64,000 nt of DNA from an uncultured Gammaproteobacteria bacterium (GCA_938075585.1 CALJHG010000004.1:9311-73310), one strand, 5' to 3'. Positions 6,869-46,391 are shown, numbered from the stretch's first letter. Notes: generated from the sequence alone by a model not told the origin. Made by a program: numbers and translations.

Positions 6869-7792
6869 ATGTCTATGTCAGATGGTCTTAAGCAAAGACT
6901 CGATAACATTATAAACAGCGAAAAAATTGTTTTATTCATGAAGGGGGATCGTAACGGACCTCAATGTGGATTTTCGGCGCGTGTCGTTGGGGTTTTGGAA
7001 GAGTTGACTGATAATTACAAAACTATCGATGTGCTCTCTGATCCGGATATTAGGAATGGAATTAAGGAATATTCCGAGTGGCCCACTATTCCTCAGTTGT
7101 ACATCGAAGGAGACTTTGTGGGTGGCTGCGATGTTGTTGAGCAACTTTCCAAAACTGGTGATTTAGTGAAATTGATAGGAGAAGGAGAACCTCTGTCGCT
7201 TCCAACGATCGTGATTACTGATTCTGCTGCAGAATCTATAAGAGACGTTTGTAAGCAGCACCCCGATCTGAATGTTCATTTAAACATCACGGATGATTGG
7301 GTTCATGAATTCAACCTGGCGCCTAATTCTGGTCATGAGATAGCAGTAGTAAATAATGGGATAGAGTTATTACTTAATCGCTCCACAGCTAAAAAAACTG
7401 ATGGGCTACGAATTGATATGGAACAGACATCTGAAGGAAGCGTCTTTAGCATTACAAATCCAAATGCGCCCCCTATGGTATCTCAAATGAATGTGCATGA
7501 ATTAAAACAGCTTCAAGAGTCTGGCGATACATTTTATCTTTTTGATGTCAGAGAACAAAGTGAGAGAGATATTGCACTTATTGTTGGCTCTCGGCTCTTA
7601 AGCGAGGAGAATATAAAATTTATTGATACATTGGACCGTAACTCGATTATGATTTTCCATTGTCATACTGGGGTACGCAGTCAGTCGGCGGCTGAGTACT
7701 TCAGAGATCAAGGTTTTACGCGAGTCTATAACTTATCCGGTGGCATAGATGCGTGGTCCGTAGAGATAGATGCTGAGGTAGCTCGATATTAA
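6869..7792 (+). CDS. monothiol glutaredoxin (Grx4, CGFS) fused to a cysteine-less IscA/HesB-like domain and a rhodanese domain
   Basis: Grx4 CGFS motif near the N-terminus (KIVLFMKGDRNGPQCGFSARVVGVL). The middle region TIVITDSAAESI...SITNPNAPP aligns with IscA (ITLSDSAA...KFTNPN) but lacks the three Cys ligands. The C-terminal rhodanese domain carries the active-site CHTGVRS. Confidence 0.75.
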   Translation: MSMSDGLKQRLDNIINSEKIVLFMKGDRNGPQCGFSARVVGVLEELTDNYKTIDVLSDPDIRNGIKEYSEWPTIPQLYIEGDFVGGCDVVEQLSKTGDLVKLIGEGEPLSLPTIVITDSAAESIRDVCKQHPDLNVHLNITDDWVHEFNLAPNSGHEIAVVNNGIELLLNRSTAKKTDGLRIDMEQTSEGSVFSITNPNAPPMVSQMNVHELKQLQESGDTFYLFDVREQSERDIALIVGSRLLSEENIKFIDTLDRNSIMIFHCHTGVRSQSAAEYFRDQGFTRVYNLSGGIDAWSVEIDAEVARY

Positions 7793-18413: not shown

Positions 18414-19400
18414 GTGAGTAATATCTCGAACGAAAAAACTAAAAACACAGAGTTCGAACCAACTCGAGCGATACGCAGTCTGACGGAAGATGTGGAAAAC
18501 AGTATGTTAGACGCGCCTCGGTCTCTACCAGCGAAGTATTTTTATGATGAGCGAGGCTCATTGTTATTCGATAAAATATGCGACTCTCCAGAGTACTATC
18601 CTACTCGTATAGAAAGCGCCCTTTTAAAGGAGGTCGCTAAAGATGTGATAAACACATCTCGTCCTGACCATATTTTGGAGTTAGGAAGCGGCACCTCGAG
18701 GAAGACGAGACACCTTTTCGACGCTTGCTCTTTATCCCAGTGCTTTCCAGAATATATCGCGGTCGACGTTTGTGACGAAATACTAGTTGAAAGCAAAAAC
18801 GCTTTGGAAAAAGAATATGGATGGTTGAAAGTAAATACAGTAGTTGGAGATTACACGGGTGGGTTGGGAAACCTGCCTAGGAGTCACGCTAAAAATTTAT
18901 TCGTGTTTCTGGGCGGGACTATCGGTAATTTTAGTCCCAAAGAGGCGAATATATTTTTGTCCGAGATTAAAGAGGTTATGACTCCGCAGGATTTACTATT
19001 AATCGGTGCTGACAGAGTGAAAGAGCCGGATATATTGCATGCTGCCTATAACGATGATGAGGGAATTACGGCTGAGTTTAATCTAAATTTGTTAGAAGTA
19101 CTAAATCGAGAACTCGATGCTGATTTTAATGTCTCTAAGTTTGAGCACTATGCATATTACAATCCTTTACTATCGCAGATTGAAATGCATCTCGTGTCCA
19201 TGCGCGAACAGAAGATTCGAATGAAGAATCTCGATAAAGAGGTGCATTTTTTAGAGGGAGATCATATTCTTACCGAGATAAGCCGAAAGTTCACCAGAGC
19301 TGAACTTGAAAATCTTCTGATTAATGCCGGTTTTGAAATTGAAAAGCATTACGAGGCAGAAGAGATGAAATTTTCGCTTGTCCTAGCTACTACTGACTAG
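18414..19400 (+). CDS. EgtD-family SAM-dependent N-methyltransferase (histidine/aromatic amino-acid betaine synthase-like)
   Basis: Strong EgtD-specific motifs: KYFYDERGSLLFDKICDSPEYYPTRIE, ELGSGTSRKTRHL, FLGGTIGNF, AYNDDEGITAEFNLNLL, and FEHYAYYNP...IEMHLVS. Confidence 0.8.
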   Translation: MSNISNEKTKNTEFEPTRAIRSLTEDVENSMLDAPRSLPAKYFYDERGSLLFDKICDSPEYYPTRIESALLKEVAKDVINTSRPDHILELGSGTSRKTRHLFDACSLSQCFPEYIAVDVCDEILVESKNALEKEYGWLKVNTVVGDYTGGLGNLPRSHAKNLFVFLGGTIGNFSPKEANIFLSEIKEVMTPQDLLLIGADRVKEPDILHAAYNDDEGITAEFNLNLLEVLNRELDADFNVSKFEHYAYYNPLLSQIEMHLVSMREQKIRMKNLDKEVHFLEGDHILTEISRKFTRAELENLLINAGFEIEKHYEAEEMKFSLVLATTD

Positions 19401-21485: not shown

Positions 21486-21562
<77 letters not shown>

Positions 21563-21679
21563 ACTTGAGTGGTTAAAAAGTCATGATTTTAAACATTTAG
21601 GCATTTGCAAGTTCAATTGCTTACGCTTAATGTGGTGATCGGGAGTTTTATAACGTTTCCGCGCAACGGTTGGATTAAT

Positions 21680-21756
21680 GCGCCTGTAGCTCATTTGGAT
21701 AGAGCATCGGCCTTCTAAGCCGAGGGTAGCAGGTTCGAATCCTGCCAGGCGTGCCA
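21680..21756 (+). tRNA. tRNA-Arg (anticodon TCT)
   Basis: Anticodon loop cttctaa and GGTTCGAATCC T-loop. Closely resembles E. coli argU. Confidence 0.9.
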
Positions 21757-21817
21757 GTTTGTGGAACGGTTGTATTAGCTAAATGGTTGTCGAGAATGAG
21801 AAATTATAGATAACAAT

Positions 21818-21894
21818 GGTGGGCGTAGCTCAGCTGGTAGAGCACGGGATTGTGATTCCTGAGGTCGTGGGTTCGAACCCCATCGTCCACCCCA
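21818..21894 (+). tRNA. tRNA-His (anticodon GTG)
   Basis: Near-identical to E. coli hisR, including the extra 5' G(-1): GGTGG..GGATTGTGATTCC..GGTTCGAA..CCACCCCA. Confidence 0.95.
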
Positions 21895-21950
21895 ATCTAT
21901 TGCGATAACTAGTTGCTATATACCCCTATGGGGTGGTAAATTTTTTTAAC

Positions 21951-22026
<76 letters not shown>

Positions 22027-22871: not shown

Positions 22872-24056
22872 CTAGGTCTTAGGATCATAACCTGCTTCAT
22901 TGGGGAACCCTTTAATATCAGGGGCAGGGTAGTAACGTTTCTCGCCCAAGGCATCCACACGATCAAAAAAATCTTGATCTGCGGCTAGTCCCATTACTTC
23001 GCCAATATCCCGAAGGTTCATTGCTTGTCGAAACATGTTCCAGGAGTCTGGGTGTAGGTTTATCGCAGTGGCTAAAAACTTATCGCCTTCCGCTTCCTTC
23101 CCATTCAGACGTAAGTAAACGCCGAGGTGGAAGTTGGCATGAGCTAAGGCTATTGATTTAGATGGCAATTGCATGTGTCGCTTGGCAGCATCGGTATCAT
23201 ACGCATTTTCTGCGATAGCCCCATTTATCGCCCAATCTTTTACAGCATCCAGATAAGTTGTTTGCGCTCTTGAAGCCAAATCTAGCGCCTCGTCCGTTTG
23301 AGAGAAGTCTTGTCTGTTCATAGAACGAAATGCATCGTGAGATCCCGCGGTCTCACTCGGTCTTACTATTTTCCCGAATTCATCAATCCATACCGCATTA
23401 GGAACATTTACCATATTGTAGAGATCTGCCACCTGATGGGTTTGATCAATAAGACAAAGATAGCTCGGGTTAGCTTCGTCTATGAATTCTCGCGCTGTTT
23501 CCGCACCTCTGCTTTCTTGAGCGACTGCGATAATTAGAAAGTCATCGTTTCCAACTTCATCATACATAGCTTGCCACACGGGCAAGTCATGTCTGCATCC
23601 TCACCAGGACGACCAGGTTGTTAAAAAGATACGTTTTCCCCGATAGTCCGAAAGTGAGTGAAACTCTCCATCGAGATCTGGCAATCTGAAGTCCGGCGCC
23701 TCGAGAGAAGTGAGTTTTTCTGATCGCTCTTTATATCCTGCTCCCAGCAACCATGTTTCTCTCGTTTCGTCATATAAGACAGGTTTCTCCATTAAGCGCC
23801 AAAATTGCGACACATTTAGATGCTTATTCTCTAGGAACCCTGTTTCGGTATCACTCGGATATGGGATACATTTCTCGTCTTGACACAAGCCTTCAGGCTT
23901 CATAGTCCAACCGAGCTTTTGCTCAACATCTTTCCTAGTTAACCAAAGATCGTTATCTTTTATTTGCGCGTTAACAGCTAGAGTTTGATGTTCGTGAATA
24001 ACTGTGACCATTTTCATATCCTTGGGCGTGATAATTGGGTTAACTGTACTCTTCAT
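22872..24056 (-). CDS. candidate selenoprotein: AhpC/TSA-redoxin family thiol-disulfide oxidoreductase with N- and C-terminal extra domains, in-frame TGA (Sec) at 23601-23603
   Basis: ORFs 23601..24056 and 22872..23585 are in the same frame, separated only by a TGA. The junction reads ...APDFRLPDLDGEFHSLSDYRGKRIFLTTWSSW-[TGA]-GCRHDLPVWQAMYDEVGNDDFLIIAVAQE... This is one continuous redoxin domain, with TGA at the first Cys of the WCxxC-type motif. A SECIS-like hairpin sits 14 nt downstream. Confidence 0.6.
23565..23591 (-). promoter_or_regulatory. SECIS-like mRNA stem-loop downstream of in-frame UGA
   Basis: On the mRNA, UGA is followed by ggaugcaga, then cauga-CUUGCC-CGUGU-GGCAAG-cuaug. This is a perfect 6-bp upper stem with a 5-nt loop containing GU, a 3-4 bp lower stem with one mismatch, and an apical loop about 20-25 nt after UGA. 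Core at 23570..23586. Confidence 0.45.
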
Positions 24057-26847: not shown

Positions 26848-26933
<86 letters not shown>

Positions 26934-33181: not shown

Positions 33182-33257
33182 GGGTGCTTAGCTCAGCTGG
33201 GAGAGCGACGCCCTTACAAGGCGTAGGTCGGGGGTTCGATCCCCTCAGCACCCACCA
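33182..33257 (+). tRNA. tRNA-Val (anticodon TAC)
   Basis: Matches the E. coli tRNA-Val(UAC) scaffold: GGGTG.TTAGCTCAGCTGGGAGAGC...CCTTACAAGG...GGTTCGATCC..CACCCACCA. Confidence 0.9.
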
Positions 33258-33269
33258 AAAATAGTCGTC

Positions 33270-33346
33270 GGAGTGGTAGTTCAGTTGGTTAGAATACCGG
33301 CCTGTCACGCCGGGGGTCGCGGGTTCGAGTCCCGTCCACTCCGCCA
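33270..33346 (+). tRNA. tRNA-Asp (anticodon GTC)
   Basis: GGAG.GGTAGTTCAGTTGGTTAGAATACC.GCCTGTCACG..GGGGGTCGCGGGTTCGAGTCCCGTCC..TCCGCCA, near-identical to E. coli tRNA-Asp. Confidence 0.95.
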
Positions 33347-45353: not shown

Positions 45354-45863
45354 ACCTAAATAAGTTCATTGAGAGCGTTAGCCGGTCCTGTTGGAATGAG
45401 TATACTGTAAGGTAATCGAAGTAATACGGTGTGTCTAACACACTGCTAACAAATACGAATATCTCTTCTCAGGTCGAAAGTGACAAACCCTTGAATTGAT
45501 TTTTCTTCTTTTACGACTTTTTGTTAGAACCAGGCTACATCAAATAATTTCTTAGCTTTAATGTTTAAATGAAAATATTTGGTATGCCTTTTGAGGAGGC
45601 GATAGGTGATTTTTTCGGAGCATTTATTAGCTTCTAGTGAACATCATCGTGAGGCAAATATGTCACGGGAGGCTCAATACTATACCCGGCCTCTCTCAGG
45701 CAAAGGTTTTTATTGCTTCTAGCCACCATAACACCAAATGATTTGACAGATACAATTTCAGAAATTGGCGATATTGTCATAAAGTGCCGGTTCTCTTCCG
45801 GATTATAGATAGTGCCCTTCACCAATGAGGCTGATTTTTCATCGGAGTTTGATTTTTCCGATA

Positions 45864-46391
45864 CTACTTTTTACGCCTCTCTACATTCAGAGCGACTAAA
45901 TTGGATTCTATATCTTTCCCAGCGTTCATTAGGTTAATTTTTTTATCAATTTTCACGAGTCTGCCATCTTTACCAATATAAAAAGTCCATCTTTTGGCAA
46001 ACCCAATCACGGACTTAACCCCATACCGGTTTGCAACTAGGCCACCAGGGTCACTTAATATAGGGAAATCGGCGTTATTTTTTCTAGCGAACTTTGTATT
46101 TGTTTCATGATCGTCGGTACTTGCCATAAAGTATGCCACTTCGAAATCTTTTAGTATTGGACCACTCTCACGGAGGGATTTACATTCGATTGTTCAGCCT
46201 CCGGTAAACGCTTTCGGAAACCAGGCGATAACCACTGCGGAACCTATGTAGTCACTTAGCCTATGAGTTTTGCCATCCGAACCGATCATTTCAAAGTTTG
46301 GGGCGAAATCACCGACAGCAACGGTATCTTCTGCCCACGTCGGGTTTGTAATATTTAGGGCCGCTAAAACAAAGGCGATTATGTTTTTCAA
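45864..46391 (-). CDS. candidate selenoprotein: periplasmic peroxiredoxin (Prx/Bcp-like) with in-frame TGA (Sec) at 46194-46196 in place of the peroxidatic Cys
   Basis: ORFs 46194..46391 and 45864..46139 are in one frame. The junction reads ...GDFAPNFEMIGSDGKTHRLSDYIGSAVVIAWFPKAFTGG-[TGA]-TIECKSLRESGPILKDFEVAYFMASTDDHETNTKFARKNNADFPILSDP... The universal Prx PxxxTxxC motif reads PKAFTGG-U, with a resolving Cys four residues later. N-terminal signal peptide. SECIS-like hairpin 16 nt downstream. Confidence 0.6.
46162..46177 (-). promoter_or_regulatory. SECIS-like mRNA stem-loop downstream of in-frame UGA
   Basis: On the mRNA: UGA-acaaucgaauguaaau-CCCUC-CGUGA-GAG(U)GG. A 5-bp stem with one bulged U and a 5-nt loop CGUGA, 16 nt after UGA. 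The loop shares CGUG with the hairpin at 23570..23586. Confidence 0.4.

Follow-up and report, generated by a model that had tools for sequence, protein, structure and literature searches.

Two in-frame UGA codons, each followed by a probable SECIS hairpin, in thioredoxin-fold genes of an uncultured gammaproteobacterium

The stretch of DNA analysed here, referred to as the window, comprises 64,000 nucleotides (nt) from an uncultured Gammaproteobacteria bacterium (GCA_938075585.1, CALJHG010000004.1:9311-73310), with positions counted from its first letter. Two genes on its minus strand, gene 1 and gene 2, have reading frames that are open except for one TGA each, and downstream of each TGA, within the coding sequence, lies a hairpin with a 5-nt apical loop. 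The two elements are very probably bacterial selenocysteine insertion sequence (SECIS) hairpins that direct the insertion of selenocysteine (Sec), and the products two thioredoxin-fold redox enzymes in which Sec replaces the attacking Cys. The features concerned are the following.

24056..22872, minus strand: gene 1, a predicted UGC-motif TlpA/ResA-like, that is peroxiredoxin (Prx)-like, selenoprotein of 394 codons, with the frame open except for one TGA.
23603..23601, minus strand: in-frame UGA of gene 1, predicted to be read as Sec (residue 152); TGA in relatives, Cys in homologues.
23592..23564, minus strand: candidate SECIS hairpin 1, c-auga-CUUGCC-CGUGU-GGCAAG-cuaug at 23591..23565.
46391..45864, minus strand: gene 2, a predicted BCP/PrxQ-type peroxiredoxin selenoprotein of 175 codons, with the frame open except for one TGA.
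46196..46194, minus strand: in-frame UGA of gene 2, predicted to be read as Sec at the peroxidatic Cys position (residue 66); TGA in relatives, Cys in homologues.
46179..46160 (core 46177..46162), minus strand: candidate SECIS hairpin 2, CCCUC-CGUGA-GAG(U)GG.

The initial annotation of this DNA had set out both hairpin sequences, their minus-strand coordinates and the in-frame UGAs, all of which are borne out on reading the minus strand. The two 5-nt loops, CGUGU and CGUGA, do share the CGUG with its G-U residues that had been remarked on, and they start 20 and 21 nt past the UGA, inside the 20-26 nt interval in which the apical loops had been placed.

The active site of gene 1 reads WSSW-U-GC, and its product scores 58.5 bits against the Pfam family AhpC-TSA (PF00578) and 47.2 bits against Redoxin (PF08534). 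With C substituted for U, it aligns over profile positions 8-352 of 354 with NCBIfam NF041054 ('ResA-like WAxxUGC motif-containing protein') at 267 bits, under the equivalog cut-off of 300 bits, and its sequence places it as a close relative of that family that falls short of the membership threshold. A Prx-like (UGC-containing) or UGC-containing TlpA selenoprotein family is described in PMC2398784 and PMC13188914; its hallmarks, an AhpC/TSA or TlpA-type thioredoxin fold together with U-G-C, are both present in gene 1, and the motif is encoded with TGA in 79 relatives. Gene 1 resembles the known family in its AhpC/TSA-Redoxin fold, in the W-x-x-x that precedes U-G-C, in length and in architecture, whereas its gammaproteobacterial clade has WSSW-UGC in place of the WASW-UGC of the known family. 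A literature search on the name 'WAxxUGC' found no papers.

A scan of a genome collection with gene 1 returned 80 loci, in which codon 152 is TGA in 79 and TGC in one. The TGA relatives span Gamma-, Alpha- and Betaproteobacteria, Methylomirabilota/Rokubacteria, SAR324, Verrucomicrobiia and Dehalococcoidia, and in the database proteins P0005, P0008, P0022 and P0078 a catalytic Cys aligns with the UGA. Past the UGA, the ratio of nonsynonymous to synonymous substitution rates (dN/dS) of gene 1 is 0.09, and the sequence beyond the TGA is under purifying selection. One locus, L161 of Myxococcus qinghaiensis (JAKCFA010000023.1, 1001..2110), is named 'ResA-like WAxxUGC motif-containing protein' by NCBI, yet has TGC (Cys) at this codon and a degraded hairpin (4/6 pairs, Gln to His). 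Because L161 codes for Cys, the NF041054-type name is evidently given to Cys forms too.

Gene 2 carries the motif F-P-K-A-F-T-G-G-U, an instance of PxxxTxxU, and scores 93.7 bits against Pfam AhpC-TSA (PF00578). It thereby combines the PF00578 fold with a putative Sec at the peroxidatic position of PxxxTxxU, the two features that define Prx selenoproteins, a family described with this motif in PMC13188914 and listed in the Global Ocean Sampling (GOS) table of PMC2398784. Against PrxU (NCBIfam NF040737) the score is only 41.5 bits, far under the cut-off of 270; gene 2 differs from PrxU in having its nearest relatives among BCP/PrxQ-type proteins, an N-terminus that resembles a signal peptide and a Cys four residues past the U (U-T-I-E-C), and these comparisons place it in the BCP/PrxQ type and not in PrxU. 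At its N-terminus it is hydrophobic, much like the signal peptides of the Cys homologues, and the product is probably exported.

Relatives of gene 2 were gathered by scanning metagenomes with the C-terminal portion of the protein, which gave 80 loci among the matches listed, with no close orthologues among them, and 11 close orthologues (L164-L174, 77-94% identity) were obtained by a protein search with the C-terminal fragment and by contig look-ups. The peroxidatic codon is TGA in 54 and TGC or TGT in about 20 of the 80 metagenome loci (again among the matches listed), and it is TGA in all 11 close orthologues. Full-length Cys homologues with 50-60% identity read WFPKAFTGGCTxEC, and past the UGA of gene 2 dN/dS is 0.07-0.2. 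One metagenomic contig, L105 (Ga0111538_10002137), holds two adjacent gene-2 paralogues, at 2358 and 2997, of which one has TGA and the full hairpin, and the other has TGC, SFAENG and a stem without the GU loop; a Sec form thus stands beside a Cys form within one genome.

Hairpin 1 consists of an upper stem, CUUGCC/GGCAAG, in which 23586..23581 pair with 23575..23570, and the loop CGUGU at 23580..23576; the stem begins 14 nt and the loop 20 nt past the UGA. A lower stem, ACAUG/UAUGU, is possible, with a 1x1 internal loop separating it from the upper stem, and it is unconserved beyond the close clade. We folded the 63 nt from each UGA and compared the result with 200 shuffles, and folded the isolated hairpins separately, at 37 C. 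Hairpin 1 is the minimum free energy (MFE) structure of its 63 nt (-14.6 kcal/mol, z = -2.0, with 9/200 shuffles as good) and reaches -11.6 kcal/mol when folded alone.

In an alignment of 74 distinct gene-1 Sec forms, the upper five base pairs of hairpin 1, those nearest the loop, are formed in all 74 at an unchanged spacing and with no gaps, and the sixth pair is formed in 52, including eight double changes from C-G to U-A. Among 73 distinct Sec-form 48-mers the loop, generally NGUNU, is CGUGU in 62, GGUCU in nine, AGUUU in one and AGGUU in one; GU accordingly occupies loop positions 2-3 in 72 of the 73, and lies one position further on in the exception, AGGUU. The stem is coded by Asp-Leu-Pro/Ser-Val-Trp-Gln, in which Ser in place of Pro still allows pairing, through a G.U wobble. 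Leu is invariably encoded by NUG, with G as third base, and the synonymous Leu and Gln codons co-vary: CUG-CAG occurs 44 times, UUG-CAG 23 times and UUG-CAA five times, and the mismatching CUG-CAA is absent (Fisher p = 0.008, uncorrected for phylogeny). The four gene-1 Cys forms hold only 3, 4, 4 and 5 of the six pairs, and one of them is without the loop GU.

Hairpin 2 has a closing stem, CUC/GAG, on the loop CGUGA (46172..46168), below which the helix is interrupted, either by a C.U mismatch or by the bulging of one U (46164), before two to three further pairs; its stem starts 16 nt and its loop 21 nt past the UGA. In the alignment of 53 Sec forms and 19 Cys forms of gene 2 (among the matches listed), a 7-bp hairpin, (G)UCGCUC[CGUGA]GAGCGG(C), is common to the Sec forms; it is in register with the element of the window, and its spacing is invariant, without gaps, in all 53. 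The family consensus, a 19-nt hairpin, folds at -9.6 kcal/mol. Across the family alignment 95.4% of cells are paired, vs 25-68% when the pairing partners are slid, and three pairs show compensatory changes amounting to 17 double-change cells. The closing pair is swapped from C-G to G-C in nine sequences, through a change of Leu CUC to CUG together with a change of Glu GAG to Asp GAC.

The inner five base pairs are intact in 50 of the 53 gene-2 Sec forms vs 4 of the 19 Cys forms (among the matches listed), and 49 of the 53 encode the Arg of the loop by CGU, which preserves the GU, the others having CGG (three) or AGGUC (one). In the Cys forms this Arg position is mostly Ala. Taken over both families, most Cys forms have lost the stem, the loop GU or both. 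The copy in the window is one of three defective gene-2 Sec forms, in which UCG/AGC became UCC/AGU, and this mismatched form is fixed in 11/11 close orthologues. When codons were resampled by the codon usage of the window, 5.5% of the synonymous recodings of hairpin 2 retained at least 6/7 pairs and 1.1% the GU as well. In one gene-2 Sec form, L157 (Ga0070680_100313223, ~605), AGGUC stands on the same stem instead of CGUGA, and the loop sequence evidently can vary within a G[G/U] rule. AGGUC is the loop of E. coli fdhF, which is unlike CGUGN.

Hairpins of this kind are rare in the window. On both strands (128 kb), hairpins with a 5-nt CGUGN loop and at least 6/7 flanking pairs number three, of which two are hairpins 1 and 2, and the concern that the CGUG hairpin might be frequent in this genome is not realised in the window sequence. 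Among 2,315 TGA trinucleotides, only the UGAs of genes 1 and 2 are followed by such a hairpin at a distance of 20-28 nt to the loop, and a scan for pairs of open reading frames (ORFs) joined by TGA likewise gives genes 1 and 2 as the only plausible cases. A more permissive scan, for a UGA followed by a hairpin with an early loop G and a stem of at least 5 bp, gave 32 open-frame hits, all of which except gene 1 appear to be out-of-frame noise, and hairpin 2, with fewer than five contiguous pairs, does not pass it; because its hits are mostly noise and hairpin 2 is missed, such a loose descriptor lacks both specificity and sensitivity here. Of the 52 long ORFs, eight end in TGA, in one case the Sec UGA of gene 1 itself, and the genetic code is therefore standard.

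The third of the three hairpins, with a CGUGU loop, lies on the plus strand at 6972..6992 (loop at +6980), 12 nt past the Cys codon UGU (6965..6967) of a CGFS active site in a glutaredoxin-rhodanese fusion ORF (6869..7792). Five of its eight pairs are G.U; it has no UGA and its spacing is too short, and it is probably a chance occurrence.

Both elements can be compared with descriptions of bacterial SECIS elements. The bSECISearch model of Zhang and Gladyshev, as it is presented in Fig. 2A of PMC13188914, calls for an upper stem of 4-16 bp carrying a 3-9 nt loop in which one or both of the first two nucleotides are G, as a rule with G or U next, for 16-37 nt between the UGA and the loop, and for an MFE of -7.5 kcal/mol or below. 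Set against the model in that form, both elements are in-ORF stem-loops within 40 nt of a UGA that is aligned with Cys, and both have 5-nt loops with G at position 2, then U, at spacings of 20 and 21 nt. Hairpin 1, with its 6-bp upper stem and an MFE well under -7.5 kcal/mol, agrees with the figure in every respect, whereas hairpin 2 departs from it in having three contiguous pairs before its mismatch or bulge and an MFE above -7.5 kcal/mol; a filter of the bSECISearch type would probably miss it.

The SECIS of E. coli fdhF and fdnG is likewise located in the ORF and contains a 17-nt SelB-binding upper stem-loop with a 5-nt loop and an essential G-U; it starts 11 nt past the UGA, with loop residues G23/U24 and with U17 bulging from the 5' strand (PMC8659212). 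The upper stem-loop of hairpin 1 is also 17 nt long, and hairpin 2 also contains one unpaired stem U. The hairpins described here differ in that they start 14 and 16 nt past the UGA, with GU at positions 25-26 and 26-27. Unlike the E. coli element, hairpin 1 is free of bulges, and in hairpin 2 it is the 3' strand of the stem that carries the unpaired U.

In the established mechanism, SelB-GTP-Sec-tRNA(Sec) on the apical part of an in-ORF hairpin delivers Sec at the UGA (PMC13188914, PMC8659212). By analogy with E. coli and with bacteria in general, the same complex would bind the apical part of each hairpin described here, the GU of the loop would have the role that it has there, and the tethered complex would insert Sec, instead of allowing termination, when the UGA reaches the ribosomal A site. 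The two elements fit the SelB pathway because of the 5-nt loop with G-U at positions 2-3, the fixed spacing of 20-21 nt, a conservation that is confined to genes with the UGA codon, and the decay of the hairpins in genes with a Cys codon.

Several observations weigh against this assignment, and the greater part of them bears on the alternative that the hairpins are by-products of conserved peptides, DLPVWQ in gene 1 and SLRESG in gene 2, with Sec insertion, if any, proceeding via another signal. Of the synonymous recodings of hairpin 1, 22% leave the six pairs and the loop GU intact, since D-L-P-V-W-Q as a peptide all but fixes the stem; one Cys form, L163, is also DLPVWQ and keeps 5/6 pairs, and from the window alone RNA-level and protein-level constraint on hairpin 1 cannot be separated. 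For hairpin 2 there is no thermodynamic signal in this genome. The MFE structure of its 63 nt has only -5.8 kcal/mol (z = +1.15, with 176/200 shuffles as stable), the native region is less stable than 92% of its synonymous recodings, and the hairpin alone gives -3.3 kcal/mol at 37 C, which falls short of the -7.5 kcal/mol of the model, and reaches -7.85 kcal/mol only at 4 C. The proposal that folding downstream of the UGAs would recover both hairpins accordingly holds in that hairpin 1 is the MFE structure and hairpin 2 is contained in one, and does not hold in that hairpin 2 is no better than shuffled sequence. The sequence counts across both families are, moreover, not phylogenetically independent.

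Since the peptide largely hard-wires hairpin 1 and hairpin 2 is weak in the window, selection at the RNA level rests on the cross-species data, and these make the peptide alternative unlikely. Both peptide motifs are linked to Sec: the gene-2 Cys forms mostly read SLA/SFA-E-N/S-G and, as given above, seldom retain the inner stem that nearly all Sec forms have, and in the gene-1 Cys forms the changes of P to A, V to I and Q to H break the stem or the loop GU. Synonymous sites track the structure as well, with Leu always NUG, CAA found only with UUG, and Arg nearly always CGU in the gene-2 Sec forms, which are mostly sequences with G+C-rich codons, and the swaps of the closing pair alter the Leu and Glu/Asp codons together. 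A working SECIS in each gene is the reading that these patterns favour. It had also been argued that two genes with the same UGA placement and the same hairpin indicate a real Sec-decoding signal and not two pseudogenes; the comparative evidence upholds that conclusion, and the argument from the shared hairpin is itself weaker than it sounds, as DLPVWQ dictates hairpin 1.

Alternatively, the UGAs may be decoded without selenium, through read-through by a near-cognate Trp or Cys tRNA, with hairpins that merely slow the ribosome or hinder RF2. Hairpins just past stop codons can stimulate read-through in general, and the searches for Sec machinery are in line with such a scheme: there is no tRNA-Sec in the window or in the flanks of the related loci L001-L060, and no SelA, SelB or SelD came up among the 20 long ORFs of the window, out of 52, that were scanned with Pfam. 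A search of the whole window against Rfam at gathering thresholds gave only tRNAs, and permissive searches of both hairpin regions gave nothing relevant, although Rfam evidently holds no matching bacterial SECIS model. The UGA, however, never departs from the codon of the catalytic Cys, and the only codons that replace it there in homologues are those for Cys, a pattern that marks Sec/Cys exchange. Both protein families are already listed as selenoproteins, and in loop GU and spacing the hairpins agree with the SelB-type model in the form given in the figure cited above; selenium-free decoding is highly unlikely in consequence. As for the suggestion that the genes are pseudogenes, or are two ORFs each, divided by a true stop codon or by an error in sequencing, public gene callers do yield fragments called hypothetical proteins (P0001-P0004, P0242-P0251). 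The same TGA is nevertheless present in dozens of independent assemblies, dN/dS past the UGA is 0.07-0.2, and each gene has a single lesion, at the active-site codon, vs three in a neighbouring DUF427 pseudogene, so that this reading is effectively refuted. The comparative evidence thus supports both the reading of the UGAs as Sec codons and that of the hairpins as SECIS elements.

The DUF427 (PF04248) gene lies 3' of gene 2 at 45449..45852 on the minus strand. It is a pseudogene in the window: an in-frame TAG takes the place of a Trp codon (45636..45634), the frame shifts a few codons further on, and a TAA follows (45526..45524). In L167-L170 the gene encodes 136 aa; in close relatives it sits between the peroxiredoxin and MATE genes. 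Gene 2 also adjoins genes for a pyridine nucleotide-disulphide oxidoreductase (glutathione-reductase-like) and a MATE transporter, and this arrangement is kept in the close orthologues.

Over 21 kb the window is about 95% identical in nucleotide sequence to L001 (CALSND010000008.1), which belongs to an uncultured marine gammaproteobacterial metagenome-assembled genome (MAG), A_MB167. Some 850 bp beyond the 3' end of gene 1 there is a tRNA cluster of the order Pro-Arg-His-Lys, followed at a greater distance by Leu and then Val-Asp, at the following positions.

21486..22026, 26849..26933 and 33182..33346, plus strand: tRNAs.

The tRNA order is kept in L001-L005, which indicates synteny with related marine gammaproteobacterial MAGs and single-amplified genomes. 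At 18414..19400, on the plus strand, the window further encodes an EgtD-like histidine-specific S-adenosylmethionine methyltransferase (PF10017, 344 bits), of a family used in ergothioneine-type pathways.

The mechanism was already well known, as were both protein families, and no new question is opened by the present case; its novelty is low because both selenoprotein families were described from marine metagenomes in 2008. Only hairpin 2 is mildly unusual, in that it is very weak and that this form is fixed across a clade, one of A+T-rich marine gammaproteobacteria. It is conceivable, though rather doubtful, that the gene-2 element functions as a SECIS with so weak a hairpin, and that CGUGN, which two unrelated families share across phyla, possibly reflects a preferred SelB motif unlike that of E. 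coli. If so, the SelB of this lineage would accept or induce a marginal hairpin, or would depend on a low growth temperature, and SECIS finders that filter by energy (-7.5 kcal/mol) would systematically miss selenoproteins in such genomes.

For annotation, the outcome is a correction by which each split gene becomes a single selenoprotein with Sec at its active site. The two genes also provide two deeply sampled examples of an in-ORF SECIS in which Sec forms can be set against Cys forms, and this comparison reveals an RNA element that shapes the peptide it is embedded in (DLPVWQ, SLRESG) and that decays upon the replacement of Sec by Cys.

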